Assembly (NCBI GenBank): GCA_030704615.1
Contig: CM060732.1
Location: forward strand, 55,676,001 to 55,740,000
Length of the DNA stretch: 64,000 nucleotides
Direction of reading: 5' to 3'
Source: Takakia lepidozioides
Lineage: Eukaryota > Plantae > Bryophyta
Shown: piece after piece, positions 35 to 50,080 of the stretch
Position numbering within the stretch: position 1 is the stretch's first letter
How the letters are laid out: each line of letters starts with the position of its first letter
The notes under the pieces: generated by a model
The model's database searches: none
What the model was told of the DNA's origin: nothing
What the model saw: only the letters and a program-made list of their open reading frames with translations
Made by a program: the position numbers and the translations under genes

Positions 35-1638
35 TTGTTGAAGTGCATGTGTGGAGCAGCACTACCACTAGTGCAGGTGGAGTCTGCTGCAGCCGTGACT
101 CGAGGAGCAGCACGAGTTCCTGAGCCATACGCTCATTCAGAGGATGTGCCACCTCCGGGAGAGCAGGATGACATGTATGGTATGGCGGAGTTACCTACCA
201 TGGTTGCTCAGACTCCATTGTGGGGCACGAGCAAGGATTTGCAGCGGGATGCTGATAGACGGGTGCAACAAGCCTGGGTGGAGGCTTTGGTACTATTAAG
301 AGAGGAGGAGAGTGCGGGGATTGCACCAGGACCACCTCAGTTATCTCCATTGGACACCACACCTATTGTGTGGCAGTATTCGGATGAAGGCATTTGTCTT
401 CTCGACTTGTTTGGCGGGATCAGCACCGGATTGGCTGCTGTGATACAGGCAAGTGTACGGGTTCGGCGTTACCTATATGTGGAGAGGGATGAGACTGCAC
501 GACGCGTTTCACTTCACCATGTTGGTCAGTTGGTGCAGCGGTACCCTGAGTTGTTGTCGGTGTCTGCAATTCGTGGATATCAGCAGGCCTTGCCAGCAGA
601 CAATTCGTTGCTGGGGGCGCAGGATTTGGAGCGGGTTGGCTCCACTGATCTGGTAGTGGCAGGTTGGCCTTGCCAAGGGCATTCATCAGCCGGGCATGGC
701 AATGGATTGCGAGACTTGAGGTCGGTCTGTTTTAGGAGATGATGCGGGTTTTGCGTCACTTGCAGCTTCATCAAGCTGTATCTCCAACATACATCTTGGA
801 GAATGTGCCATTGATGGGCGATTCTCGGGCCAGGGTGATGGCCAGTGTGCATCAAGTCCGGTCGTGGCTTGGGTCAGCAGTGTTGCTAGATGCAGCTACA
901 GTGGGGTCATGGGCTCATCGTCCACGGCTATGGTGGACTAACCTGATGCCACCTGCACTGCTCAAGCGTGCATTTGATGGGGTGCAGCGGCCAGCACATC
1001 TCACAGTGGATAGCATTCTGGACACAGGGAGGCAGTCTCAGTGTGTGAGACACGATGACCGTTCGCCTTTGGCAGTGGTCAACAAGGTGGGTCAACCACG
1101 AGCAACATTACCTACACTGTTCAGCTTCCCAGGATCGCATGCTTTCCGGGATAGTGGACCTGGCCTCCTGTGGGATGCTCAGTTGCAGCAGTTAGTGGAG
1201 CCTAATGCTGACGAGCGTGAGCGGGCAATGGGTTTTACCACTGGTACCACGGCGGTGTCGTCTCTTTCTGAGGCATCACGTCATCAAGTGTTGGGGCAAG
1301 CAATGGATCTCAATTGCTTGACCTGGATTATCAGCTTGGCTATGGCTGAGCAACGCAGAGTGCGGAGTACACTTCCCTCGATGGTCTCTCTGCCTACCGA
1401 GACGGTACAGGCAGTGAGTGGGGGCGAGCATGTGAGGACCACGGGGTGCAGACATCCATGGCACACGTGGGAGGTGCTCGAGGTTCAGAGGGAGTTGGCA
1501 GCCAAGGTGGCGATGAAAGATGAGGTTGGGGATTTTTCTCGGGTGGAGGAAGTCCTTGAGGATAAGATGATGGGGCAAGATGAGGCCTTGTCACTGACTG
1601 AGCAGGTAGGGAGTACTGCTCAAGAGGTTGCAACATAG
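35..1638 (+). pseudogene. DNMT3-like cytosine-5 DNA methyltransferase domain of the retrotransposon polyprotein (one frameshift near 725-735)
   Basis: Motif I LLDLFGG (~398-418), motif II YVERD, motif IV GWPCQG (662-679, catalytic PC), motif VI ILENV (793-807), motif VIII HRPRLWWTNL (~916-945), motif IX ERERAMGF and motif X LGQAMD (~1291-1308), in canonical order across ORFs 35..742 and 739..1638. Confidence 0.92.
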
Positions 1639-1752
1639 CAACCACTGGACGCGTCCTCTACCTCTAAGCCCACTGGACTTAAGGTTGCAGTTACGGAGGA
1701 CAATTGGGAGCCTGACATTGGACCCATTGTCACCGGAGGAGAGAGACGACGT

Positions 1753-4700
1753 ATGCGGCGGTTCATGAGGGCTTACAGGAATTGCTTTGCCTTCAATTTG
1801 AAGGACTTGGGAGCACTGAAGGGTCAAGAGATCCGTATTGAATTGGCCACTGACACGCCAATCTTTCGGAGACCCTATAGATACAGTGACATGGAGAGGT
1901 CTTTGATTCAGATGAGGACTCAAGATCTCTGGGAGGCAGGTTTGGTTGAGCTCTCTGGTGAAGAGTATGCTTCAGCCACAGTGATGCCAGCCAAGAAGGA
2001 TGTCTATGGCAAATGGACGAAGAGACGTATGTGCGGTGATTACCGGCCTGTAAATCGTCAGACCAAGTCCGATAAGTATGCCATGCCAACACCAGAGGAG
2101 ATATTTGATGCCATCGGACATGCTAAGGTCTTTAGCACTTTGGATTTACGATCCGGATATCACCAGTTGCCAATCAAGGAGGCGGACAAGCAGAAGACGA
2201 CATTCTGGGGATCAATGAGCACGGCAAGGATTGCCTATATCAGTGGCGGTTCTTACCATTTGGGCTTAAGAATGCTCCTGCAGAGTTTCAGAGAGTCATG
2301 GATAGGATTTTAGTAGGGGTGGACTTTGCTCGGTGCTACATAGATGACATCATCATCTTTAGTGTTACGATGGAGGAGCATGAGAGACACCTTCAGGTGG
2401 TATTGGAGCGCTTGAGAGCGCACGGATTGAAGTTGCATCCGGGGAAGTGCAAGTTTTTCCACAACCAGATTGAGTATCTGGGTCACATGATATATCCTGG
2501 AGGATTGGGGGTACAACACACTAAGGTAGAGGCCATTGCACAAATTCCATGCCCCACGGATGTGAGCCGAGTTCGAGCTTTCATGGGGTTGGCAAACTAT
2601 TATAGACGGTTTGTCAAGGGATTTAGTACCATTGCAAAGGCTCTAACCAAGCTGACCAAGGTGGACCAGGAGTGGCAGTGGGAAGATGAGCAGGAACGAG
2701 CTTTTCAAGAGCTCAAGGCGAGGTTGACCTCGGCACCTATCCTGAGACGACCTATCAGGGGGCGTCCCTTTCAGCTGCATACGGATTGGAGCATGCTGGG
2801 GCTTGGAGCGGTGCTCACACAGGTGGATGATGATGGAAGAGAGTTCGTAGTGGCTTATGCTAGCCGCTCAAAAAACGCTGCAGAGGCTAAGTACAGCTCA
2901 TATGAGGGAGAGTGCTTAGCTGCAGTGTGGGCCGTGGCACACTTCAGGTGCTATCTATACAGCAATCTTTTCATCCTTGTCACGGATCACCAGCCACTCA
3001 AGTGGTTGATGGAGTCAGACAAGCTTACGGGGAAGCTTGCACGGTGGGCACTCATATTCCAGGAGTATGACTTTCAGGTTGTGCATCGACCGGGTTTGGT
3101 CAATCGGGATGCAGATGGATTGAGTCGCAATCCATGCATGAGCCAGCATGATGACACTGGAGCTCGGTGGCATGGTGAGACGGACGAGGAGATGGTGCCG
3201 CGATGGCATGCATCTCCATTTTTGTGTATCTTGGCATCGGGAGGTCAGGTTGGACCTACAACAGGGATGACTGTAGACGGAGTGTCTGAGGACCCTAAGG
3301 CTAGTGATGAGCAAGGTGGTGCCAGAGATATACATGAGGATTCGGCTGTGTTGGACTACCTCCGCACGGGAGACACGGCAGCCACTGTGACTGCCAGCGA
3401 GAGGGATCGGATCCTGCAACGAGCGAAGAGGTTCAAGTGGGAGGGGATACACCTACTTTGAGTGTGGGAGGATGGTCGGGTGAGGATTGTGCCTCACCCC
3501 ACACAGCGTGCACGGTTAGTGCGGCATGCCCATGAGGAGTTGGGGCATTTTGGAGTGCGACGCACTCACAGTTTAATGCAAGGGCAGTATTGGTGGCGTG
3601 GTATGCATACAGAGGTGCAACAGTTCGTGGCTAGGTGCATGGTGTGTGACAGGGTGCGTGCTTCATTCAACACCCCTACACCACAGTTGCATCCTTTACC
3701 AATCATGGGATTGGGCTACAGGTGGAGTCTTGACTTCGCAGGACCGTTGCCACTGACTATGCGCCACCACAGATATGTGTTGGTGATGGTGGAGCACTTC
3801 TCCAAGTGGATTGAGTTGGTTCCATTGCCTGACAAGGCTAGTGAGGGGGCTGCGTATGCATTCTTGGATCGTGTGCTTAGCTGATTTGGTGCTCCAGCTG
3901 AGGTACTCACGGACCAAGGGAAAGAGTTCTTGGGGGAGTTTCAGGCTTTGTGTGATAAAGCCTTGATAGACCACTACACCACTTCTCGGGATCATCCTGA
4001 GGCCGATGGCTTAGTAGAGAGAGTTGTTCAGACGGTGAAGAGGGGTTTGCACAAGTATGGTTTGCAGAAGGGACACCTAGGAGATTGGGATCTTCAGGTT
4101 CATTGGTTAGCCATGGGCTAAAGGTTCAGCAAACAAACATCACTTGCCTCCTTCTCACCATATTTCCTTCTCTTTGGCCGAGAGCCGGATTTTCCTGCAG
4201 CCATTCGTAGGGACACTGCTCAAGTCCTTAACCTTGACGATCCGGACGTGTGGGTACGTGCATGTGATCAGCGTGCAGAGTTGTTCAAGAAAGTCATGCC
4301 CATGGCTTTTGAGAACCTTGCCATTGCACAGCACCGGGATACGTTGAGGTATGCCACTATACGTGGTGGAGGATATTGTCCTGGGGTTCGGAGGTTTAGC
4401 CCTGGTGACTATGTTTATTTGCAGCAGACTGCTCCTACGACTCTGGATGTTATTGCAGGGCGTGTTATTCTGAGGGTTCGAGAGGTGTTGCCCTCAGGGG
4501 TCCTGATCTTGGAGGGTCGGGATGGCATGACTTGGAAGGACCATGTGCGTAATTGTGCGCCATGTCACCTTCCCAATGTCGATGGCAGAGTTGACCCAAA
4601 CTTGGCAGTGGTACCTGCAGGTTTGAGGTGCATGCTCTGTGGGTCTGCCAAAGGGGCAGCCACCATGCTGGTGTGTGATCGATGCTCAAGGGGTTGGCAT

Positions 4701-4772
4701 ATGGGATGCTTGACACCACCTCTTGAGAAGGTTCCTGACGGAGATTGGTTGTGTCCACACTGCTTGGGATAG
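1753..4772 (+). pseudogene. pol: reverse transcriptase, RNase H, integrase, C-terminal PHD finger (frameshift ~2210; in-frame stops at 3459, 3882, 4119)
   Basis: ORFs 2298..3461, 3462..3884, 3930..4121 and 4248..4772 share one frame. Terminal CMLC...LVCDRC...WHMGC...WLCPHC (4629-4763) is a C4HC3 PHD finger. Confidence 0.93.
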
Positions 4773-5020
4773 TGGCAGTGGACATGACTGGAGGCAACTA
4801 ACAAGACATGGGAGGCCAAGCTCCTAGGAGTCAATACATGAGATCCCAAGCTCAAGTTCACAGGTTGCAAGATGGCGACTAACGATGGGGCAACTCTTGC
4901 ACCTGGCCTCTTGATCTATCGAGTTTGAGTGTAGTAGGGATAGTGGTGGAGGACTTAGTGAGGCTATGGTCACTATCACATCTTGTGGCTACCTGGACTT
5001 AGAGGGACCTAAGCACCAGC

Positions 5021-5208
5021 TAGGGGGGCGATTGTGTAGACTAGTGACTGCCATAGTGGGCAGCATAGTGGCAGCCTAGTGAGTGACTAGTTGTAGCCTA
5101 GTGGTTGGACTAGTGGTGGACTAGTGGTATACTAGTGTGTGGTGTGCACATGTGTTGTGTGGTTTTGGACAGCGATGTAGTTGTGTAGCGATATGTATGC
5201 GTACGACA
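5021..5208 (+). repeat. Polypurine tract (5021-5031) and short 3' LTR (~5033-5208)
   Basis: TAGGGGGGCGA is followed by TGTGTAG...GTACGACA (TG...CA ends, imperfect terminal inverted repeat). Host repeat sequence resumes at 5209. The 5' LTR is not in the window, so this cannot be confirmed by pairing. Confidence 0.65.
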
Positions 5209-7780
5209 GATAGAGTGTGGCCAGATTACAGGCACAAGATTACTTATGATTCCACGTGAATCAATAGCTACTAGCAACCTGCATGGGTAGATGGTCAACT
5301 GGAAGCTGCAGCAGCAATTCAAGCATTGCTAATGAAGCAACACATTTCACCCTGTTTTTCTCTCTTATCAGAATTGGCCCTGAATTTTCATGTTGAATTC
5401 TGCAAGTTAGCTTGTTGACTGAACCTTCAATAGTTTGGAGGGACTGACTGATATTGCCAATGTGACAACAAAGTATCCTGAAACAGGTAACAGAGACAAG
5501 GAGACCAGGAGCTGTGGAATGAATAGTTTTCTGACCCAAGTCAATGGTGGGACAATCGAGGCAAAAGACAAATGCCTGTTGATTTCAGAGAGTAGAAAAT
5601 GCAGTTGAGCATAGGAACTAGTGTGAAAAGTTGAGTTGGGTTTTTCCTAGAACAATTATAGGCTTGCATTGTTAGTTACTAGCAGCAAGGCAAGGGTGAA
5701 TGCATGATTTGTGCGGAGGCATGGATAGGTGAAGGAGCAGGGCAGTTGTAGGATTGGGTGGGTCAAAAGCGGCACATGTTGGTTTGGTCTTAGCAGGCCG
5801 TGAGGGCACCTTCTTCTTCAACCTATTTCAGCCTGTTTTTCCCTCTTATCAGACTCGGGCCTAATATGCATATTGAAATCTGTAAGTTAGCTCGTTGGTG
5901 CAAGAGAGAGAGTCAGCTTGGTCTTAGCAGGCCGTGCTTTGTTCAAAGCTGGAATTGTACCTAATGTCATTCTGAACACTGCCTGGCAGCTCTGGAAAAG
6001 GGGAAAGAGGTCGACATGTTTGCAAAATGAAGGCCTTACTTGGTGCCTGCAGAATCCATGGCAATGTGGAGATGGTTGAACGTGCGGCATGAAGGTACCT
6101 TCTTCAACACATTTCACCCTGTTTTTCCCTATTACCAAAGTAGTCCCTAAATTTTCATATAGAATTCTGCAAGTTAGCTCGTTCGTGATGTGAGGTTGCA
6201 TGAGTTTTATACCAATCTTTCACGATGGTGGGACAACCGCAATCACCAGGTGTGGCTTTTCTTAATGTACGATGTGAAGAAGTTCGTCCATCCTGCAAAG
6301 ATGGGCTCTTGACTCTTGTGAGTACCATGATTTAGTATTCTTCCTAATGTTTACAAGGTTATTGGGAGAGTCAGCTTGCAGGTCTTAGCAGGCCGTGTTT
6401 CAATCTCTGCCTGCTCAGCTGCACCGTGGTGGTTCTCACAGACCAATCTGACATTACCTGACTTCAGACAAACAACAAACACAAGAGGTCCTTTTGGGTT
6501 GATGGTCGGTCAAATCCTCCATGGGTCAAGGACAATGTGGTGAGGGCACATTTTAGCCTGTTTTTCCCTCTCATCAGACTTGGCCCTGATGCATGTTGAA
6601 TTCTGCATGGGTGATAAGTACGGTTGGGTGTTTGCTGGAACAATTGTAGGTTGTCATTGTCAGCCGCTAGCAGCAAGGGAAGGATGTATGCATGATTTGT
6701 GTAGAGCTTGGATAGCTGAGGGAGCAGGGGTAGAGTCTGGCCAGTCCAGATTCATCCAAGAGGGCGGGACTTCAAGCTCACGATTACCTATAATTCCCTG
6801 TGGATCAATAGCTGCAAGAAACCTGCATGGGTAGATGGTCAACTGGAAGCCGCAGCAACAGCGGCACAATTGATAAAATCAGGCACTACTAATGAAGGCA
6901 CCTTCTTCAACACATTTTCACCCTGTTTTTCCCTCTTATCAGAATTGGCCCTAAATTTTCATGTTGAATTCTGCAAGTTAGTTGGTTGAGTGAACCTTTT
7001 GATAGTTTGGAGTGACTTTGACATGGTACTGCCAATGTGACAACAGGGAAGTATCCAGAAACTGGTAATAGCTGAGACGAGGAGAAGCTGTGGAATGAAT
7101 ACTTTTCTGACCCCAGTCCAAGGTGGGACAATCGAGGCAAAAATGTGAATGCCTGTTGGATTACAGAGAGTAGCTGATGCAATTGACCATAGTGATAAGT
7201 TGAGTTGGGTGTTTCCTAGAACAAATCTAGGCTGTCATTGTCAGGTGCTAGCAGCAAGGGAAGGATGTATGCATGATTTGTGCAACGGCATGGATAGCTG
7301 AAGGAGCAAGGATAGAGTCTGGGTCCAGATTCATCCAAGAGGGCCGGACTTCAAGCTCCAGATTACCTATGATTCCATGTGGATCAATAGCTACAAGAAA
7401 CCTGCTCCATGGGTAGATGGTCAACTAAAGGTAGCAGCTGCAGCGGCACAGTTGATAAAATCAGGCACCTCAACCATGACCACAGCTTCTAAAAGAGGAT
7501 CAAGAGAGGTGGCTGAACGAGATGTGGTGTTTTGGAGTGCCATGATTGCGAGGTATGTGCAGCATGGGTATGGGATTTAGGCTTTGGAAATCTAGGAGCA
7601 AATGATGTGGGAAGGGATTAAGCAAGACCAGGTCATGTTCATTTGTGTTTGTAATATGCATATGGGAGCCTAGCAGCCCTGGGAAGGGGCAAAGAGGTTC
7701 ATGGTGACATTATCAAAAGCTGGAATTGTACCAGATGTCGTTCTGAACATTACCCTGGTGTACATCTACATCAAATGTGA
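5209..7780 (+). pseudogene. Tandem degenerate copies of a gene with OSB-type PDF motifs followed by PLS-type PPR repeats
   Basis: LWNE*FSDPSQWWDNRGK (5512-5565), EFYTNLSRWWDNRNHQ (~6202-6249), PDF..KQTQEVLWVDGRSNPPWV (~6455-6530, frameshifted), HPRGPDFKLQITYDSMWINSYKKPAPWV (7330-7415) running in frame into DVVFWSAMIARYVQHGYG..ALEI*EQM..GIKQDQVMF..GKEVHGDIIKAGIVPDVVLNITLV. DNA blocks repeat 3-4 times (e.g. 5250-5720 vs 6800-7300). Confidence 0.75.
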
Positions 7781-8027
7781 GCCTGGCAGCCCTGGCCAGA
7801 GAAGAACATGAAGAGGGCTTACAATTTCGTTCGCCCGGGCGTAGACATTGCTGGCAATGAGAAGAAGGCAGGAAAGCAGTTCAGTGTTCCTAGCATGCAT
7901 GCGGAGACGCCGTGTAGAAGTTAGGCTCAAACTTTTATCATGGCTGGATTTTGTTGACAATGTTCCAACACTTACTCTCTGGGATTTTATATTTTATTGG
8001 AGCTTGAATCCCCAATGGTACTTCTTT

Positions 8028-8905
8028 CACTACACTAGTGGTATGTGTTCCTCTAGTCATGTTCCTAATCACTTGCACGCCACTGTAATAGTGGTATAAT
8101 TTAAAACTGTAAGAGTAGCCAAATATACACACAATTGCCTCCATTACCACTCATGTAGTGGTATAAGTAATCACCTATATATTACTGTATTAGTGGTATG
8201 AATTCCTCCAGTGGTATTCCTAATCACTTACACACCACTCTGTTAGTAATCATTCCAATCCATAGTTCCCACTCAGAGAGACACCATGGATGATTCAAAC
8301 AGCTTACATACCACTATGTGGGTAATCATTCCAATGACCTGCTGAGTGTCATCCACTCACATAACCACGGTTTGAGTGATATTGTATATTCTCAGTTTTC
8401 ATAGAATAACTCTGTCAGTCATTTCGCGATCACTCAACAAGTGGTTTCGGAAGTCATTGAATTTTTCACTCCATCCATTTCGTAGCACCGACACATGACA
8501 CGTGTCCATGCTGAGAGTGTCGTCACGTGTCAACATAATCTCCAATATCATCCACGGACCACCGACTTCCACGTATCCACTGGGAAACGGAAGTGGTTAC
8601 TTTACCACTATAACACGTCAGTTTACCACTGTGACACGTCAGAAGTGGTTGGTTTACCTCAGTAACACGTCATTGACACGTCACAATGGTTAATTTACCA
8701 CTGTGACATGTCAGCGAACAGGTGGACCCGGACGTGAGTGGTTCGAACCACTGTCCTTAACCACTGATGCCACGTAATGTCTTTTATCACTCACTTGTCC
8801 TAATCCACTGGTTCTTCATCACTCTGGGGCCAGAGTGGTTTAGTGTCTTTTACCACTCAAAATGAGTGGTTAACAGAGTGGTTATTCCGCATTTTTCTTC
8901 TAGTG
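8028..8905 (-). mobile_element. CACTA (En/Spm)-type non-autonomous element, one intact terminus
   Basis: The minus strand starts CACTAGAAGAAAAATG at 8905. Dense ACCACT/AGTGGT subterminal repeats occur in both orientations across 8030-8885. The left boundary is uncertain. Confidence 0.6.
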
Positions 8906-9429: not shown

Positions 9430-12400
9430 CCGATTCATTACCCACTCTGCTCCTCCTTTGAGGTCATCTTTATCAAGTAAGAATCATAAAGCTATGCGGC
9501 ACCGCTTCCCTTCACCTGTACTTGCCCAACACACCACGTGGTCTCCCCCGTAACTTGATCTTTCTGAAACAGATCATCATAAAGAAAGAAGCAGCACCGC
9601 TTGCAGCTGCACACCCTACCAAGCATCGCCCCTTAACTGACTGCTGCACCGCATGCCATGATGTTCTCCTCGTAAGGTAATCTCCCAGAAATCGATCATT
9701 ACCAAGAAGATGGCGGTACCATTAACACAGAGCATGGATGGATGAAAATCGCGGGTACTTAGGCTATATCCTGGTCGAGCGTTCCAACGTTCCCATGATG
9801 TTCCTAGAACATGGATGAACTTCATTCATCCGGTGGTTGAAAAATCCATTGTTTCATAGTTTATCCACTTCCATCAAGGCGAAAATCCTTTTCTCAACAG
9901 CGGTGATATCATTCTCTCCAGAGTCTTCAACCCGATCCTCATTAACGTTCAACTGCCTTGATGCTGAGGTATTCCCAAAAGAAGAGGAAGGGAGACCTCC
10001 CGTGCCCACCCTTGATGGAGAGGAATTAACAAATAGAAACCTCCACATCATCTAAAGCAACATCCTCCGGAGACAATCCAAAGGTCGAAGGGGTACAATA
10101 CCCGTCAACAATTGCCCTCAACCCAGCAACGACACCATCCGTGAGCATTCCTTCGGGAGCGGGCATGCTAACACCAGTAGGGAGCTCCATTTCCAATGTC
10201 TGCGTTTGTGGGTGTCGAGCGGCTTTTACTCACCCATCCCTTCGCTATCCGAGGTGGAAACTCCAAGATAGAAGAGTTGGATATCTCTAAGCACTCAGCC
10301 CGCTCAGAACAATCAGTCATGACCTACAGCTAGTGAATCATGGTTGTGCTTCCTATTTGTATTCCTCTTTGCCTTCATGTTATCAATTTACCTTACCGTG
10401 TATACTGAAGCATCAGATTGCTTCAGTATCTACTAAGTTCCAATTAATCATGCATTCATTCCGCAGCTTCTCTCCTGTCTCTCTACACAATATGTTTGTA
10501 TCGATTCAATATCGGATTAAGATTAATCATGTATCATGCCTATGCCATGGTGTCCCTAATTTACCCTGCTGTATAATTTTACAGCTTGCATGAATTAAGC
10601 CTCAATCAAGTCATCATCTCCTCTTCACTGTTTCCGCTCTCCGTTACGTCTCCTCCTCCCTTGAACAAGTCGCCCTCCTCAAGAAGTGATCCCCTTCCTG
10701 TTGCCGCTCTGCCTAATCAACCCGCAAGCTGTTTTAACCACCTACCTAACTATCCGTCACCCCTGAAGTAACACGTTCCCTCTGCAGATGTCGTTCCCTG
10801 TCAATGATAACTGTTCCCCATGTACTGTGACAGGCCGTGTCAAGCTGTGTCGAGTTGTGACTGGCTGTACGAAGCTGTGTCGGGCTGTGTCGGGCTGTGT
10901 CAGACTGTGTTTGGCTGTGATAGACTGTGACGGGCTGTGTAAAGCTGTGTCGGGCTGTGACTGGCTGTGTAAAGCTGTGTCTGGCTGTGATAGACTGTGA
11001 CGAGCTGTCTACAGCTGTGTCGGGCTGTGACTGGCTGTGCGAAGCTGTGTCGGGCTTGTATCTGGTTGTGATAGACTGTGACGAGCTGTCTACCCCCCCT
11101 AAAGCCGGCACCTGCTACCCCTAAGGCTCCTGTTGGTCTCAGTCTACCATTCATAAGTCTACGCAAAAATTAAGGGTACCCCACAAAACCCGTAAAAGCG
11201 TCCAAGTCCCAAGCAGCCCTCTAACATTACCCCTTCCCCTCTCAAAAAGCCGTGTCCTCACGGTTTACTGTTTGGGATCAGCAAACCTTTGTGAGCGAAC
11301 ACCCTTCTGTCGGTGAGAGTCTCGTGAAGGACTCCGTGTGCGAGCCCGAGTCCTGTCACTGGCTGATGGAGACAATTGAGCACTACCTGGAAATGTCTGA
11401 CCCTCCTTTGGCTGATAACGAGGTAACCTCACAGGCATAGGAGATCCCCGTCGTTTCTTCTTTGCCATCTGAAGTGCATAGTCCTCTGCCATGTCAAAAG
11501 AGTCCTCTGAAGAAACAGTAGTATCAGAATCCTCGTCCCCCCTTAGGTGTTTTAACGGCCGAACTTTAAGTGGCTTCTTGGGAATCCTGCGTGGCATACA
11601 ATGTGGGCCCACCATGTCGGGAAGTTTAAACTGTACGACTTGCTGTAAGCACTTGCAAACAAAATTAGTGAACGCCCTGAACTCCTTAGCCGTATAGGTG
11701 AGAGGTGTGCCAATGACTTTGGAACAGTGTAAGTATTTCCAGGCTTCATGTCCCTTAAAGAAAATATCCTCAGGGCCGAATTACTCTGTTGCCAAATTGT
11801 TCCAAGCCGAATTAAACCATGAACGAAGTTGGGAATCCTTCTACATCATAACTTTTGCATCATATAGGTACATATGAGGTGGAACTGAAGGTAAAACCAA
11901 TGATCCCCATTGGAATAACTCAGAAATCGTTATTGCATCTTTTGCTGCTCAATGTGATAACGTGCCATAAAACAAGCAGCATAGTATAATCCACAGCCCA
12001 TGACAATACTAGATACATCATTGGTCTTGGTATAGATGTACCCATGTACAACCTGGAAGGCAATTAATTCCTTCAACATGGTACCTGCCTCAGACCAGTA
12101 CCTTGCAAAGTGATGATCCTCAATGGGTCGATTGTTCGGAAGAACCTTAGTCCGAGTTGCCACTGGCAACTAAATGCGCATGATCTGGTAGTAATGTGCC
12201 AACGACTGCGGAGGACTAAATTCCTTCCAAGCAGCCCATGACTGTTTATGTGTTTCAATATGCAAGTCGTGCTGCAATGGTTTGTCATGGATACCAATGT
12301 ATCCCTTCAACTTATTGACATTGACTCTTCCCAGCATCTCTTTGTTAATGGTTTGTAACATGACGGTGTTGTTATCATACATCTTCTGTATGACATAAGG

Positions 12401-14714
12401 TCCTTTCCATGGTGATTTAAGCTTAGAAGCCTTAATCTTCCCCTTCTTTTGCAACCACAGAACCAAATCTCACGTCTTAAAAGTCTTTAATTTACCTTCA
12501 TCAAACTGATCCTTCCTCTTCATCTTAATTCTGGTCATGTTATCCGCTGCATCAGCACGTACTTCTTCCACATGGTATAATTCATGTTTCCTGACCTTAA
12601 TTGAATCTTCCAATTCCATTCTCTTTCCCCATTCCGTTCTCATGGTAGGTAACAGGAATTCCACTGGAAGTAAAGCTTCCATACCATAAACTAATTGGAA
12701 TGGTGTATACTTAGTGGTGACTTTATATGAAGTCTTGTATGACCACAAAGCTGTCAGCAATTTTGTATCCCAATCTGTTCTGTTTGCATTGACTATCTTA
12801 GCCAAGATAGTACATAGTATTTTGTTGGTAGTCTCTGCCTGCCCATTACCCTGTGGGTAATAAGTTGTACTCTTCCTATGCACAATCATGAACTCTTTAG
12901 TCAATAGTTCTATGGTCTCATTAATGAAGTGACTTCCCTGGTCACTGATAAATTCCAGGGGACAGCCAAATCGCGTAAGTATGTTCTCATACAAGAACCT
13001 TGTTGTGGACTTAGCTGTGTTGTCCCTCAGACCTTTAGCTTCCACCCACTTTGTAGTATAATCAGTGGCTGTGATTATATACTTGTTCTGTGTATTCTTG
13101 GCTGGTGGGTTAATTGGTCCAACAAAATCTAGTCCCCATTTCTGAAATGGTTCAGTAGGCATCGTAGGATGCAAAGCCATCTTCCCAGATCTCTGCAATG
13201 GTCCTAGCCTCTGACACTCATCACAACTCTTACAATACTTGTGTACATCCTTGAACAAAGTTGGCCACCAGTAACCTGCAAGTAGTATCTTTCTACTGAT
13301 AGTCTCTTCTCCAAAATGACCTCCAACCACTCCTTTATGAACTTCCTCCAAAACTTTATTTACTTCATGGTGGTACAAGCATCGTTTAAGTACTCCATCA
13401 GGTCCTAACTTATAAATTCTGCCCCCTACCATAGTATAAGGTAAAGCCTTGATAGCGATTCTCTTCCTCTGCTCCTTTCCATAACTAGGTGGGCACTGAC
13501 CATGAGTAAGGTAGTATCTGATTGGCCACTGCCAATCTAACCAGTCATCTGCACTTCCCTGCACCTCCACTGCAAATAAACTCGCATCAGGTAATTGGTC
13601 GTCTACTCCTGTGGCTGGCTCTCCTGTTGATAGGCGTGACAAGTGATCTGCCACAAGATGCAAACGACCAGGCTTGTAAACAACCTCGAACTCAAACTCG
13701 TGCAAGATTATTAACCACCTTGTTGTCCTTCCACTTATCAAAGGTTTGTTCACCAGATATATCAGAGCCTGGTGATCCACATAAAACATAAACTTCCTTC
13801 CCAATAGGTAATGCCTGAATTTCTTGACTGCATAAATCATTGTCAGTGCTTCTCTTTCAGTTGTGCTATAGTTCCTTTCAGTACTGTTCATCAACCTGCT
13901 AGCATAGTACACATGTGAGTCTATATTTCCTTTAACACTGCTCCCAACGCTTCTCCTGAGGCATCACAGTGAACATGAAATACTACATGTCAGTGAGGGT
14001 TAATCAGCACAGGTGTAGTTGTTACTGAGTTCCTCAAAAGCCTGTTGACATTCAGCTGTCCATGCAAACACTGCATCTTTCTTCAGAAGCTTGCTCAATG
14101 GTGCTGCTATCTGTGCATACCGTCTGACAAATCTTCTGTAATAACTGGTTTGTCTAAGGAATCTCCTTAGACTCTTAACATTTACTGGTGGTGGAGAGGC
14201 TTTAATGGTCTCTGTCTTTCTGGGATCCACAAGAAGTCCCCTCTTACACACAATGTGTTCCAAAAGCACCCTTGAGTTCACACAGAAAGTACACTTCTCT
14301 GGATTCAGGCCCAGACCTCTCATCCTGCATCTGGCCAAACATAACTCCAATTTATGCAAGTGCTCATTCTTAGAGCTGTACACACTGAAATCATCCAAGA
14401 ACACCTGCATGAAATCATCCAGATACTCATGAAAAGATTCACTTATCACTCTCTGAAAGGTTGCTGGTGCATTACAAAGTCCAAAAGGCATGACTTTGTA
14501 TGCATAAGCACCCCAGTCTGTGATGAAAGCTGTCTTTCCCTGGTCTTCTTCTGCCACTTGCACTTGATTATAACCACTGAAGCCATCCATGAATGAGTAC
14601 ATCTCATGGCCTGCCACAGTGTCCAATACCGCTTCTGTGAATGGCAAAGGGAAATGATCTTTCTTCGTACAAGCATTCAACTTCTTATAGTTCACACAAA
14701 CTCTCAGTTTACCA
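9430..14714 (-). mobile_element. Second Ty3/Gypsy LTR retrotransposon (RT-RNase H-integrase), 5'-truncated at the LINE junction; left boundary approximate
   Basis: Minus ORFs 14000..14713 (LRVCVNYKKLN, MDGFSGYNQ, MPFGLCNAPATFQR, FLDD), 12470..13912 (NYSTTEREAL, GGHFG...CDECQR, WGLDFVGP, SDQG, YYPQGNGQAE) and 12170..12466 (SPWKGPY, GPY/F-like). LTRs were not resolved. Confidence 0.88.
10830..11091. repeat. Degenerate ~10-bp tandem repeat (GCTGTGTCGG / GCTGTGACTG / ACTGTGACGA variants)
   Basis: About 25 units are directly visible, with higher-order blocks. Confidence 0.9.
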
Positions 14715-16925
14715 TATATTCGGAGCCTCTGGCCCTGCCACCCAGCATACCTGGACTGGTAGTGGCCTTGCCCACCCACCACTAGGTCTCCACACACAAG
14801 AAGCTCTCCAATGGGCTCGTTGTGCGGCTCAATTCTCCTCACCTACCACCACCATACTCATACTTACACAACAACAATGGCCCGATCCTAGACACCCCCT
14901 CCTCCAACTTCCCGCCTGCGTCTAGCCGCTATCGAACCAAACCAGCTCAGATATATACATGTCCCCCCCTTCCCCAAGTACAAAGAGCCTACCTTAACCC
15001 TGCTACTACTTGTTCAAAATACCTTCCCCCCCAACGCACATATTCCGGACTTCCCTACCCGTCTCCACCACCTATTAGCAGGAACACATGGCACACCGCC
15101 TTTCCACTCCCCCCAACTTACCCCACTACTCCTAACCCAATCCCCAGTATTAGCCTATGCAAAGCTTGGACACGGGCGCTACCACGCCCCCCCACCCCCT
15201 GCCCAATAGCTACCCTCACTACACCCCCACTTTGCCAACAAACTCTACCTCTAAAATACCCCCCTGCCCACTCTCATTATACTGATGGCTCCCTCACCGG
15301 CTCCCACGCAGGTTATGACATTTACCATGCCGCCCCTAAACAAGGCATGTCCCTTAGACTACCTAGCCCCGCCACCATTTTACGCGCTGAGCTTATGGCC
15401 ATCCATGACGCACTCTCCCAGTTAACCTCTTTTCCCCCCACATTACATTTTTACTGACAGCCTGACCTCCCTCTTTTTCATTCGAAATCACCTCCCTCGA
15501 CCCTCTTCCCACCATCACCATCCTGACCGGAACCTCATTACAGCCATTGTCCATCTTGTTATCTCCCTGAACCAACCCATCTACTTTATCAAAGTTCGCT
15601 CGCATACTGGTATCTTTGACGACGATGCAGCCAACCTCCTCGCCTAGCAGGGGGCCGCCCGCCCCCCCCTTGATCCCACAACGGACCCCATTCATATCGC
15701 ACACACCCACCCATTTTGGCTTATACACCCCGTCCCGGAGTCTCCTGAGTCCTGACCAATCCGCAACCTTTTAACTGTACTTACTCGGGAGACTAGCAAA
15801 CAAGCCTCAATATCTACCAGCCACACCAAGAAACGCATCCAGAAATGGACGCAATCCACTGTACAACACCATAAACTATCCCACCACTTTTGGCACACCA
15901 AAGCCGCTACTGATGCACAAATACGACAAACCCTCAAATTTAGATATGCTCAATACATGGGCCACCATCGCAAACACACCTTCTGGCCGCGCCTCTACCT
16001 TTCCCCGAACTGTCCACTATGCTCCCGCACCCACATGGTCCGCAATACATGGCCCCACCTTCTCAGCCAATGTCCCCACCCCGTCATCCATGGTCTCCGT
16101 ATCACCCGACATAATCATGTTATCTCGCACATACACAACTCCTCCTACAATGCCCTGAAACTCGCTGGTTCTCACTTATCAATGCGGCATCTACCAAGGC
16201 CGACCTCCGGACCACACTGTACCGTCATGGGTACTCCCATACACCTGCCGACCTCACTTACCCTGCATATGCCCTGCTCAACTATGCCCGGACATCTTGC
16301 TAGTACAAGGTCTACCCATACACGCCACGCCACCCACTATCCAATCCCCCAACCTCACTTGCATACACTTTATTGAATTCACATACTGCCACAACCGCTA
16401 TCCTAGCACCTCCACTCTAAAAAAACGTCAGAAATATGCTCCGCTTATCCTAGCCATCCGCCGACTCGGCTGGACCATTGACCCACTAACCGTCATCACT
16501 ACTGGAACACAAGGTGGCATCCACAATGCCAACATCTATGCACTCCACAAGAAGTTTAGAATCCCCAACCTTCTATACACAAATGCTTAAAAACTATCCA
16601 CCTAACGGCACTTCGCTCTATCATAGCCAGTATCACCAATAAACGACAACAAGAATCCAATCTTCCACTAGGCTCTTATGTACCCTCGGGATCCTCCGTG
16701 GTACCCGGGGTATCCCCCCGGTACCCTAGATACTCTCCTCTGATATCACTGTTGTCACCGATACCCTATACACTCCCCTCTGCTATACCCCGGATACTAC
16801 TCCCTGGTGTCCCCTGGACATCTTTTTTACTTAGAGGGCCCACCCCCGAAAGGGGGTAGTAGCCGCAAGGCGAAGTGGCTCTTAGTTACGCCGGTCCCTT
16901 GACCGGAGTTTTATCTCTTTCTCTA
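14715..16925 (+). mobile_element. 5'-truncated non-LTR retrotransposon, Dualen/RandI-like (RNase H + CCHC zinc knuckle + restriction-like endonuclease), degenerate
   Basis: RNase H: HYTDGS, TILRAELMAIHDAL, DSLTS, KVRSHTGI (15275-15650). Zinc knuckle and RHN: CPLC..TWPHLLSQC..ITRHN (16010-16115). PD-(D/E)xK-like: PDILLVQG..HFIEFTYC..KKRQKYAPL..GW (16288-16520). A structured, T/C-rich 3' tail follows. Confidence 0.75.
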
Positions 16926-33950: not shown

Positions 33951-35974
33951 AGTACTTACGAACCCAGGAGGGTGTTATGCAATGGCGAATATCGTGTTGG
34001 TAAGATGATTGCAATGCATGCGGTGAAATCTTGGGTTTGATTCTGCAGGGGAGGCTATTATAGTGTCACCCAGGGTATTCGCACTCCAATTGGTGTTACC
34101 CCAGTAACCTTGCGCAACATCTAACCCACATACCAGACCAACACTCTTACACACCCAGTCGTATAACCCAGTGTAATCCCAAGTGAAGTTACACTCCCTA
34201 CTCATGTGTAACCTGGTGTAACCCCGAGTGGAGTTTACACTCCTTCTGTTCCATGTCACTCTCAAGAGAGGGTGGAGAAGATTTGACATGTCGAAACAGG
34301 CGCACCATCCTCTCAGAGGTGGCAAGTGTGCATGAAGTTCTTACATTATTCCTATTATCTTCCCTTTACAACAAGGTACATTAGTTTAGGTTATTAGAAA
34401 TATCAAAACACAGTTTGATTTTGTTAATAATTTTTAATTGTTGGAATCTGGGGTCTCAAAAGTAAGTGGCTGATTACTACTTACTGGTACCATGATGCTA
34501 TCTTTATGTATTATGACCTAGGAGCTAGGTAGATATTTCAACCTTGGAGCCTCTGCTCACTGTCTATACAAATGACTCACATGTACCAGACCACTATGGC
34601 CCTAAAATTTAAAAGATAATCTCTACCCTTTCTCAAAAAAAATAAAATCTCTACCCTGCTGATAATGCAACGCAAAAGGACAAATTACAGCAAATTGTTG
34701 GGCATATGTGTTTGCAGAGCCAAGTATCTATCTTTAATAAACTCACACAACACTGAAAAAAGCAGTGCTATCATCAAAGTGCACAGAACTGCAAGTACCA
34801 AGTTTGACTCAGTTTCCACTGAACGTGTGAGAGATCTCTTGATGGAAGTAGGAGAGAGTACGCAACTCTGAATAACCTCCATACAGGTAATTCCATTCAT
34901 ACTAGTTTGTAGTGTGAACAGCGTGAGTGTGTGAGAGGGAGGGATGGAGACAGAGTCCTTCGTAGAATGTGTAAAGTTTGTGTGGGCATGTGCGAAAGAA
35001 CTTAACACTGTCTGGAAGAGTCAGAAGGCAGCTCAGAGTGCGTGGAGCAGGAGACATAATGAAGTTGTTGGTGATGATGATGGTGATGATAAGCTTGGTG
35101 ACGGCCCCACGAGAGGCATTTCAGGCTGGCCATTCACAAATATCTAGGGATGCATAGAACAAAACTCTTGCAATGATGCTTGCCTGTCTAATCTCTTCAG
35201 CCTCATTGTTTATTCCCCCTCCCCTCCTCCATCTCAGCTTATCTTTCTCTCGCACATACGACATGGGGATTGATTCCAGGCTCTAACCTGGGATCCCTGC
35301 ATCCATCCGAGCACTTTTTCGTGAACACAATGCAAACATGAGGACATGTGGACGAGTAATGAATGCTGTGGAGAACCCAGACATCTGGGTGCACGAATCA
35401 CACTGTTGTTTGATATATCTTAGTTTTTTCACAGATTCTTTGCTCGGATGGCCTCGTCCTTGTTCGTATGCACTCTTTTTCATAGAAAGCTAAACATGCA
35501 TGGCACATGTGTGATGTTCCGTGTTTGAACTTTGAACCATGACGCGAATTCTTCTTGTTGCTCTTCATCTTCGTCACCATTAGGAAAATTCCAGCTCACA
35601 TCAAACTTCTCCAAAACAGGACAGTGCATGCGAAGTTCAAGCCGGGGAATCAAATGCGGCTGTACGGCCGTGAAAGCTTCCGAATCACATTTGCTTTACG
35701 CCAAGCCTACAACAAAGCATGAGTGCGTCATCCTGATCTGTACGCTCAACCCAAAAACTAAAACATGTATGCCAACACGATATGCTTCAGTATGATTCCT
35801 CGATACTCACTAAAGGAGGATTTTCGTGATGTAAGTTACTTGCTTTGCACTGAAAAAGCCAACCCTCATAGCCAATCTTCCCAATCTTCTGACAAAAAGG
35901 ATTCCAGTACAGTCTTCCCAATCAACTTGTCCATGTCTAGGGCGGATTAAAGGAAAGAAGCCTTGAATGATCAG

Positions 35975-37500
35975 TCCAGGTGGCCTCCCCTTGCTGGCTG
36001 GCCAAGAGCCTGTTGTGTATGTTTTGGTGGTGTCTGGGAGCGCCAAGTAGGATTAAAGTGTTTTGGCCATCCGACCAAGTGACCCACAGGGCGAATGCTC
36101 CTCCCATCTTAGAGAGTCGAGAGAAGGTGGTCCTGTTGAAGCCTCGACAGCAGGCATGGGAATGCAGCAGACACTACATGAAACTGAGTGAGGATAAGGG
36201 AGGGAGTCAGGTTTCGGTAGACTTCGCAAAGGAGGACAGCAACATGACAGGGGGGCTCCTGAGAGTGGCGCTTATATGTGGTGGGCCTTCCACCGAGCGG
36301 GGAATCGCTTTGAACTCAGCTCGCTCTGTGCTTGACCATCTGCAGGTACTTTTTAGGAACGATGGGTGTAAGACTAAAAGGAACCAGCTCAATGGGACAC
36401 AATTCGTACCGAATGTACAGCTCCACACGCACTCGTCACTCCACGAGCTGCCGCGGTATGACATAGGCGAGAGATTGATAGATTGTTGATTTCTGTCGTC
36501 TTTTGATTCTAAGGATGGTGGTTTTGCAGAGAGGATGTACAGTGTCAGAGATGGAAAGACCCAAACAGCTGTGTATGCCCAATAAAGTGTTTGAATCTCG
36601 GGAGATGAAGGCGGTCTAGAGGCGACATGACAACAGCAACAAAGAACGACTCGACAAATTGGAGTAACTAAGTTGCCCACACAGAATGGGGAAATGGATG
36701 CTTGCAAGCAGGCTTCACAAATAATGCAGAAAACTTGGGAAGGACCAGGCGCTCGTTCCTACAGGAAAGTCTTGTGGCTTTGTTGGGAATATCCCTTCTC
36801 TCAGATTTACCAATTCTAAATGCTTGAATTTCACCATCATTTAGCATTGTTCAATCTGTGAGCTAACAAAAGTTGAGCATCATCGGATTTACTAATGGTT
36901 GGTTTTGCGGCCCTGCCAGTGGTGGCCCATTCTCTTTGCCACCACACACAGTTTTACAGGGCTTGTAATCTATTGAGAAGATTGGGTGTGCCAAGAACCA
37001 TGTGGCCAGAATGTGTAGCTTGGCTTTCATGCCTGAAACGGAGCTTTCCATTATCAGGTTGTTAGCTTCCTGCAACTGGTTCAGCGTTATGAAGTAGATA
37101 TAGCTTTCAGAGCTTGCACAGATTTCAGACCCAACTCAAATGGTGAAAATTGAGAATTATAGACTTTTTGTGACTTGTTGAGCTGTGCTGGATTCCACAC
37201 TATCCCTTCGCATCAGACGATCATGTAGGCTCCATTTCATCCTCTCTATTCCAGCCCCCAGCTGTCAACCCACACATCCACCCCGCGTCCCAAAAACGTA
37301 GAAACCTCAGAGAAGCGAAATTAAAAATAAATTGGTCTCGCACATGTCAGAGGCAATGAGAGCAAGTGCTGGTGGATATAGGTCATTCGGGAAAGGGCCA
37401 GGCTGATGATTTGGTAATACATTGCTATTACCTGAACCGAGAATTGCAGTTTTTGGCCATCTCTGGTACTGCTTCGGCTCCCATGCTTTATATCTGAAAT
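35975..37500 (+). pseudogene. Partial duplicate of DDL exon 1 (35975-36495) and exon 2 region (37118-37500)
   Basis: Near-identical to 50105-50612 (LRVALICGGPSTERGIALNSARSVLDHLQ) and 50625-51045. Lacks the start codon region and all downstream exons. Confidence 0.9.
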
Positions 37501-41600: not shown

Positions 41601-42546
41601 TCTTGCCTATGTAATATAGTGGCAAGGTGAACGTTGTAGCATTTACATGTTCAGAAGATCTTTGGGGTTTATTCAATTAGGGTTGAATTCTTGTGCAAAT
41701 CCATCTTGTCCTTTTTGCTCTTCTCCTCTACGTCCTATGTCCGTATCAGCGTAGTGGCCGTGCCTTAAGTCCCATGGTGGAGCAGGGTTATCTCTCTCTA
41801 CTCTTGGCTAGTTCTTGGATACTCAAACCTATACACCAAAGTAATTGTGAGAGTGGGAATTGCTACTCAGAGCTGTGTGAAACAGTTGATTGTTTGCCAA
41901 TAACTTATGGCTAGTTCTATGGTGCTCACATCAAATCTGGCTAAAGAAGCTACCAGTCATCCAATGTTCATCACTTGCCATGTCAAAAGGGGAAACTTTC
42001 AAGCAAGTAGTAAGTATTACCATCAAGCCCAGCTCATGCTCCCGAACGTCACGAGTCATGACCCTTGACCCTTGTTTTGTAGTTTAGAGATGAATGAGCT
42101 GAGTGAATTACATAGTGATGTTCTTCTGCGGGTTGATCTCGCGTAGCGCTAAATAAGTATGGCTGGATTTTTCATTGCACCATCCTGATCTGTTCTGGCC
42201 ACGGCAGATTCCGTCCTAGGGTGTTCCTCCGTGCAGGAACCAAGAGTCAGGCATTAGAGGGTTTTGGGATCCGCATCTCTGACTCTGTTTTTGAGAAATT
42301 CTTCGCACTGTTGTGACTTCTTCCACCTTGTCTGAGGGGTCATTGATGTGTTCCACTGGTAGCGGGTCAGGATCTAACCTCTGTTAGCTAGATGCATTTT
42401 AAAGTCAGGTATCAGAAACAGAATAAAATGTTCCTGAAATTGTAGGATTGTACGGAGTGTGTCTTCTTCTTTGGATGTCGACCATGGGAGCGGGAGCGAG
42501 ACCCTCAAACTCAACTGCGAGCAGTGTTAAATGAGAAACTCAAGTC

Positions 42547-50005: not shown

Positions 50006-50080
50006 GCTCAATACTTGAAGTGACTACGCAACGGGAGCACAAGTGACCCTGTGAATTTTCGCCGGAACCCCTCATTGGGT

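Follow-up and report, generated by a model that had tools for sequence, protein, structure and literature searches.

The stretch of DNA analysed here (the window) comprises 64,000 nucleotides of Takakia lepidozioides (assembly GCA_030704615.1, contig CM060732.1, positions 55,676,001 to 55,740,000 of the forward strand) and carries at its left end a decayed retrotransposon with a DNMT3-like cytosine methyltransferase (MTase). In the clade to which this copy belongs, comparison of sequences places the MTase at the end of the Gag-protease open reading frame (ORF1), followed by a conserved stop codon and, in the same frame, by ORF2, coding for reverse transcriptase (RT), RNase H (RH), integrase and a PHD finger. 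The reading favoured, with a rough probability of 0.55, is that the stop is read through, that the methylase is made at Gag abundance, and that it methylates the element's own complementary DNA (cDNA) in the particle before insertion.

The element was assigned by its sequence to a high-copy Ty3/Gypsy family whose nearest named relatives are from Calypogeia, Marchantia and Sphagnum, in agreement with an initial annotation, made from the sequence alone, that had proposed a land-plant, bryophyte-type family. The order of domains in the window is DNMT, tail, TAG, RT, RNase H, integrase and PHD (Table 1), the pol domains and the PHD finger being found downstream of the MTase as had been described; ORF 736–1638 was likewise confirmed to lie in the reading frame of RT behind a single TAG. 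The copy itself is judged to be decayed, dead and protease-deleted. Its MTase is broken by a frameshift near 723, with motifs I–IV in frame +2 and motifs VI–X in frame +1. About 327 amino acids, protease included, are gone at 127/134 by comparison with Marchantia protein P0006: relatives have the protease here, and the window matches skip residues 462–789 of P0006, so that the protease was deleted in this copy. Contigs of the host family diverge from the window at 46 and at 127/134; since they part from it at 46, the 5' repeat and gag lie outside the window. In run X1, possibly from the same sample as the window, 62,886 contigs were aligned on the 5.4-kb element region, and most of those covering the sites do not share the window's sequence at 3459 and 3882, with indels at 723 and 2206 among the differences listed; these breaks are therefore not family-wide.

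The cytosine methyltransferase motifs I, II, IV, VI, VIII, IX and X were found in unpermuted order, as annotated, and the profile of the relatives matched the two MTase pieces with E values of 6e-49 and 2e-101; Pfam alone gave a weak match (E 0.0018). The nearest solved structures by profile were DNMT3A (2e-17), HhaI (2e-6) and DRM2 (2e-5). For the natural MTase domain of locus L058, a model with a pLDDT of 96.6 was obtained, whose best Foldseek match was DNMT3A-DNA (E 4e-20, TM 0.73/0.83), every listed match being a DNMT3. By sequence and by modelled fold, the MTase is thus placed closest to DNMT3A/B and not to DRM, DNMT1 or DNMT2, and the original preference for DNMT3 over DRM holds. The catalytic Cys is present in 199/203 homologues, the Glu of the motif VI ENV in 202/203 and the Arg pair of motif VIII in 199/203 and 198/203. 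The Pro of motif IV is replaced by Glu in 82/203 homologues; PC is retained in 50/51 members of the window's clade.

Ratios of non-synonymous to synonymous rates (dN/dS) were determined by the Nei-Gojobori method. Between L058 and L055 the ratio was 0.13 for the DNMT domain (325 codons), 0.05 for RT and 0.54 for the tail, and the DNMT domain is accordingly taken, from these substitution patterns, to be under purifying selection. The window and L001 gave a pN of 0.19 and a pS of 0.755, the latter saturated; a dN/dS of 0.88 between two decayed sister copies is as expected after insertion. The MTase segment is multi-copy, lies within the element termini and keeps its Cys, features on which the initial proposal depended.

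Three other identities were rejected: a DRM, by the unpermuted order of the MTase motifs; a host DNMT3 gene interrupted by a nested element, by the lack of DUF3444 (no match in domain searches of the window or its relatives) and of introns and by element-borne DNMT in 131/134 homologues of at least 900 amino acids; and bacterial or phage contamination, by the plant neighbours, the target-site duplications (TSDs) and the plant-named relatives.

The stop codon was compared among host-family contigs and among 80 metagenome loci. In 966, 8, 19 and 1 contigs of four runs, no variant at 1% or above was listed at 1634–1645, and adjacent positions vary. Sixty-two of the loci span the site in BLAST alignments to L001 and represent 53 distinct Sphagnum-type copies, with TAG in 38, TAA in 14, TAC in 1 and TGG in 0. 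Among the 18 loci not spanned, five keep the stop, with TAG-CAG-TTA in L055 and L058, TAG-CAA-TCA in L067, TAG-CAA-CCA in L045 and TAG-CAA-CCC in L052; L077 and L079 are stop-less, L047 was left out, and the remaining ones are cut off or deleted there. The stop is followed by CAR-YY in 50/53 Sphagnum-type copies, against a background of 0.8% (256/33,481) after stop triplets, and this context occurs in five diverged families. Strict UAG-CAR-YYA, in frame with ORF2, was found in the window, L045, L055, L058 and L067. The second codon after the stop varies in amino acid (Pro, Leu, Ser) and keeps YY.

The unbroken copy L058 has an ORF1 of 1369 codons (976–5085; Gag, zinc knuckles, protease, DNMT), then TAG, then an ORF2 of 1047 codons in the same frame (5086–8229; RT, RH, integrase, PHD). 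Homologous ORF1 proteins terminate at about the same place, and 45/49 proteins of the window's DNMT clade (support 0.962) end without a pol domain after the DNMT.

These comparisons bear on the earlier proposal that the element had encoded one continuous DNMT-RT-RH-integrase polyprotein, its TAG being a decay mutation of the window copy, plausibly from TGG. Such a chain does occur in other clades (L077, L079, P0044, P0271, Closterium), and the window copy bears several private decay stops; nevertheless, the host family and four other families are fixed for the stop, and the codon never reads TGG, which makes this origin scarcely credible. As read from the aligned copies, the clade has conserved this stop, which is not a product of decay, and the DNMT terminates the Gag-protease frame.

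Env read-through is known from SIRE1. Among plant viruses, UAG-CAR-YYA defines type I read-through, and tobamoviruses have, like the window's family, one in-frame UAG with CAR-YY(A) (PMC3542737). A gag-stop-pol arrangement is described as very rare among retrotransposons; in Tca2 and VdLTRE5 the stop follows gag (PMC3441728), whereas here it follows protease and DNMT, a placement by which the accessory enzyme shares the expression level of Gag. The conserved stop and its context make programmed read-through likely. A downstream RNA stem was dropped as further support, since it failed control windows, covariation and cross-family comparison: single-sequence folds gave z values of -2.0, -2.2, -1.1 and -4.1, z of -2 or lower was also reached in 4/35 and 6/36 control windows, compensatory changes were seen in 0/37 pairs, and no structure was common across families.

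Under the favoured reading, translation would yield mainly Gag-protease-DNMT and, upon read-through, a minor product extended by RT, RH, integrase and PHD, and the methylase would so be made at Gag abundance. Protease processing of Gypsy polyproteins is established, and by analogy the DNMT would be packaged in the particle and cut loose there by the protease. In the particle, newly made cDNA would be the nearest DNA and would be methylated ahead of insertion; cDNA is, by a small margin of confidence, regarded as the main substrate. Pre-methylated cDNA might be taken for self, be protected from deamination or determine the chromatin at the insertion, ideas put forward in PMC5890265. The nearest structures to the PHD finger of the element are those of CHD4, KDM5B, PHF12 and PHF21A. 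Several of these PHD fingers read unmodified H3K4. A weak suggestion, leaning on the ligands of these similar fingers, is that the PHD may steer insertion to chromatin with unmodified H3K4, which would fit silent chromatin.

Several observations weigh against this joint reading, the first of them at the stop. Most Sphagnum-type copies (47/53) have CAA-CCC, one base off CARYYA, and only 1/53 has the strict motif. Four of the 49 clade proteins, all Marchantia gene models (known as proteins only), have DNMT and pol domains on a single chain. In the Sphagnum-type copies an ATG stands two codons past the stop, and in L055 four, which could permit re-initiation. ORF2 of the same element might not depend on read-through: termination-reinitiation, internal initiation past the stop or removal of the stop by splicing could each yield it. 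Ogre-type elements splice out a stop. Gene callers indeed begin P0322 and P0323 near the post-stop ATG, and the four bridging Marchantia models speak for such a route; these models, however, join at differing points, and the window has no ATG in its first 38 post-stop codons. Its CTG at 1645 and its ATG at 1753 are missing from most host-family contigs, the latter being where the RT frame start was first placed. L058 has GTG at that place and its first ATG inside RT, and both the shared frame and CAR-YY are kept, needed by neither route. One contig, from a run that is presumably RNA, also covers 1264–3435 without a skip, a weak point. Expression of ORF2 without read-through is therefore considered unlikely.

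Further points on the same side concern the enzyme and its substrate. The DNMT of KnitGypsy-Dnmt3, a Klebsormidium nitens element (de Mendoza et al. 2018, PMC5890265), was inactive in yeast, a result that its authors call inconclusive. As a trace of self-methylation, the CpG observed/expected ratio was 0.51 in the element and 0.46 in the rest of the window, and neither CpG nor CHG depletion was found in the element; with CpG no lower than in the surrounding window, the sequence bears no such trace. The stop-less L077/L079 clade and the chlorophyte elements with DNMT within Pol indicate that Gag-level abundance is not required lineage-wide.

The yeast result would also fit a DNMT fold retained for a role other than on DNA, namely to methylate RNA or to serve the particle structurally or by binding nucleic acid, as would, respectively for the fold and the structural part, the motif IV substitution and a Gag-level stoichiometry. 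This is very unlikely given the near invariance of the Cys, the Glu of ENV and the two Arg of motif VIII, the PC of the window's clade, and a sequence and fold nearest to DNMT3 and not to DNMT2. The related SymbioDIRS-Dnmt3 methylates CG de novo in yeast (PMC5890265), and the element's enzyme is predicted probably to have DNA methylase activity. That activity could also fall mainly on chromosomal DNA, at the insertion site or on resident copies, making the enzyme a silencer, or a brake on copy number, that the element itself encodes. With DNMT in large excess over RT, there would be more enzyme than one cDNA requires, the PHD finger suggests chromatin reading, a brake that benefits the host was raised in PMC5890265, and the host plant DNMT3 lays down CHH methylation in moss (PMC10952607). 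In the window's clade, however, DNMT shares a chain with PHD and integrase only upon read-through, and products fused to Gag usually end up in cytoplasmic particles; a chromosomal target is thus held to be fairly unlikely, and methylation of cDNA in the particle remains preferred.

The termini were determined mainly in relatives. Full-length relatives consist of A1 (about 340 nt, starting TGTCATG), the internal region, a polypurine tract (PPT), B1 (115–185 nt, ending GACA), two bases, A2 and B2, with element ends TGTC...GACA. Canonical paired long terminal repeats (LTRs), as claimed in the initial annotation, are absent from these copies, and no TGG start of a tRNA primer binding site lies within 16 nt past A1 in 5/5 relatives checked. 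The termini are accordingly classified, from sequence, as split direct repeats (A1...B1-A2-B2) and not as LTRs. B1-A2-B2 was seen in 7 distinct loci and a single B in 9 (L019, L028, L032, L039, L040, L044, L060/L061, L070, L073); the window likewise has a single B (5031–5208), and other host-family contigs run past 5209 into a repeat-A-like start. The single-B copies could stem either from recombination between B1 and B2 or from a collapsed assembly. Nine distinct insertions of relatives had both ends visible, of which 6 showed an exact 4-bp TSD, 2 one with a mismatch and 1 none; the window contains the right end only. Ty3/Gypsy features are recognised in the order GAG-PR-RT-RH-INT (PR, protease; INT, integrase), the DDE integrase, the TG...CA ends and the 4-bp TSDs, on the basis of RT, RH and integrase in the window and of a Gag-like region, protease, RT, RH and integrase in L058. 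The B1/A2 junction forms the palindrome GACA-GC-TGTC (L069:10345–10357; also L002, L007 and L080), that is, the right end, two bases and the left end; it resembles the junction of a retroviral circle, lodged within the element.

With the C-terminal MTase half as query, 54 protein matches were obtained among 3,663 candidates, the top relatives being Calypogeia fissa (75%), Marchantia polymorpha (63–72%) and then Sphagnum. The DNMT profile recovered 438 clusters at E ≤ 1e-30 from 1.84 billion representatives, and protease, RT, RH or integrase lay on the same chain in the 131/134 homologues mentioned above. Two layouts were distinguished: protease-DNMT ahead of RT, in bryophytes and Closterium, and RT-RH-DNMT-INT-PHD, in 42 complete proteins (P0045, P0093 and P0162 among them), those named being from the chlorophytes Haematococcus and Scenedesmus. 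A Cymbomonas protein has RH-DNMT-INT. Many proteins of the second layout carry GWEC and not GWPC, and their DNMT position is unlike that of the streptophyte elements. In a second land-plant clade (L077, L079:5248–14566, L074), Gag-PR-DNMT runs on into RT without an intervening stop; motif IV reads GWEC there, the ends are again split direct repeats, and a 4-bp TSD is present. The L079-type element adjoins a PPR-DYW gene. No protein named as Klebsormidium occurred among the homologue matches, including 20 proteins of two clusters, most matches carrying no species name; viral contigs gave 12 pattern matches and 0 relatives of the element.

In a midpoint-rooted FastTree phylogeny of DNMT domains (204 sequences, 328 columns, host DNMT3 excluded, only the C-terminal half of the window's domain used), the window grouped with Calypogeia, Marchantia and Sphagnum-type sequences with support 1.0. 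An unrooted RT-RH tree of 139 sequences grouped the window with Sphagnum-type and Marchantia sequences (0.955) and placed every DNMT-before-RT element in one clade (0.999). Since both trees agree, the two domains have travelled together. Tentatively, and with considerable doubt as to the whole, a Gypsy lineage spanning chlorophytes, Closterium, liverworts and mosses may have kept a DNMT3-like methylase since early Viridiplantae, with one land-plant clade using read-through to load it into particles at the level of Gag, where it would methylate each cDNA in advance, and with replication proceeding without a tRNA primer site through the split direct repeats, the integrase resolving the GACA-GC-TGTC junction. 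Were this so, every new insertion would bear an epigenetic mark from the outset.

Retrotransposon-borne DNMTs are a known kind (PMC5890265); their occurrence in land plants and the read-through layout were not found in the literature. No embryophyte DNMT-carrying Gypsy element and no such read-through was described in the sources covered, which did not extend to subscription journals, Repbase or the large supplement of PMC5890265, and the term KnitGypsy occurred in one paper only. The main text of PMC5890265 presents no land-plant element and does not name Marchantia; its survey table lists 9 DNA_methylase genes in Physcomitrella and 10 in Selaginella. Two later papers citing that work say "streptophytes", and their trees may include land-plant sequences.

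KnitGypsy-Dnmt3 shares Gypsy domains, an unpermuted intronless DNMT3-like domain and the catalytic residues with the window's family, and its Ka/Ks below 0.2 points, as does the L058/L055 ratio, to purifying selection (PMC5890265). Its host is Klebsormidium and not a land plant, and its DNMT lies in the Pol polyprotein ORF (PMC5890265), a condition found in the sister clades and not in the window's clade, where the DNMT closes the Gag-protease frame before the stop. According to the legend of Fig. 4 in PMC5890265 it combines DIRS-type repeats, not LTRs, with Gypsy domains, which were matched with split direct repeats by description only. SymbioDIRS-Dnmt3 and SymbioLINE-Dnmt of dinoflagellates are likewise retrotransposon-borne cytosine MTases, the DIRS enzyme being DNMT3-like, but they represent independent captures on DIRS and LINE backbones (PMC5890265), whereas the window's family has a DDE integrase, a PHD finger and 4-bp TSDs. 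EpiLTRs/DAM-LTRs (bioRxiv 10.64898/2026.05.21.726589) are LTR-type and, in common with the window's family, unite DNA methylases and a chromatin-reader domain; theirs is a DNMT4-related DNMT at the pol 3' end with DAM and a chromodomain, which that preprint sets apart from a streptophyte Gypsy-DNMT3. PAT, Ngaro and VIPER elements have the same A1...B1-A2-B2 order and use a tyrosine recombinase (PMC6681497), in contrast to the Gypsy integrase, TG...CA ends and 4-bp TSDs found here. The host proteins PpDNMT3a/b share the unpermuted DNMT3-type MTase, a trait of non-flowering streptophytes, but have a C-terminal DUF3444 (PMC6453930); the window DNMT has no DUF3444 match and is embedded in a retroelement ORF. 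Phygy (REXdb) inserts at NCGN, and 0/9 TSDs of the window's relatives are NCGN; Phygy and Selgy, bryophyte and lycophyte clades of REXdb, were compared by description only.

Table 1. Features of the DNMT-carrying element in the window (positions from the first letter of the window).
Feature	Position	Strand	Evidence or remark
Gag-protease linker remnant	46–127	+	tblastn match to Marchantia P0006, aa 436–462
Internal deletion junction	127–134	+	P0006 matches skip from aa 462 to 789; loose contig ends at 127 and 134
DNMT3-like MTase, N-terminal half, frame +2	383–736	+	Motifs I, II, IV; catalytic Cys codon 671–673
DNMT3-like MTase, C-terminal half, frame +1	724–1356	+	Motifs VI ENV, VIII HRxRxW, IX, X
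MTase motifs	I 401–424; II 476–490; IV GWPCQG 662–679; VI ENV 799–807	+	
MTase motifs, continued	VIII HRPRLW 916–933; IX 1213–1236; X 1291–1308	+	
ORF1 variable C-terminal tail	1357–1635	+	Protein comparison; matching L058/L055 stretch dN/dS 0.54
Conserved stop TAG with CAA-CCA (CARYYA) between ORF1 and ORF2	1636–1644	+	Likely read-through signal
RT and RNase H	1639–3068	+	YIDD 2337–2348; RNase H 2679–3068; frameshift near 2206
Integrase	3498–4118	+	HHCC zinc domain; DDE core D 3732, D 3912, E 4017
Integrase-region stops	3459–3461, 3882–3884, 4119–4121	+	
PHD finger at integrase C-terminus	4629–4763	+	Pfam PHD E 2.7e-11
ORF2 stop	4770–4772	+	
Polypurine tract (PPT)	5021–5030	+	Aligned with Sphagnum-type L069 PPT; precedes repeat B in relatives too
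Repeat B, GACA-ended, right end of window copy	5031–5208	+	Single B here

Elsewhere in the window, a decayed pol of another, unrelated Gypsy element (12470–14842, minus strand), with RT, RNase H and integrase, gave no DNMT match and lies next to an RNase H fragment (14786–15457, plus strand). Dispersed direct repeats of 50–120 nt occupy 5210–7600, with a PPR-like fragment seen by eye near 7500–7580 (no Pfam match), and run X12 is very deep at 5221–5400. A tandem array of about 25 units of 10 bp is located at 10814–11063. Exon fragments of a D-Ala-D-Ala ligase gene, presumably of the plastid-peptidoglycan type, occur at 35971–37331, 50024–50838 and 55300–55965 in duplicated and inverted blocks of 88–96% identity, with inverted arms at 44.6–47.9 kb and 54.5–62.6 kb; these blocks are a local segmental duplication. 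An intronless ORF of 679 amino acids (42535–44574, plus strand) gave weak alpha/beta-hydrolase matches (LCAT, PGAP1-like).

Homologues are so widespread that a single ancient acquisition in green plants is suggested and not a Klebsormidium oddity. Since 2018 the role of retrotransposon-borne DNMTs has stayed an open question, as experiments are difficult in the hosts known so far and the enzyme of Klebsormidium gave no signal in yeast. Close relatives of the window's element are present in Marchantia polymorpha, annotated as hypothetical genes (e.g. Mp_4g09160, Mp_8g17980), and the question is thus testable in a genetic model with methylation mutants, where the read-through layout predicts DNMT at about the abundance of Gag and far above RT. 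With such unusual ends, these elements would be missed or mislabelled by LTR-finding pipelines, and bryophyte DNMT gene counts may contain transposon ORFs.

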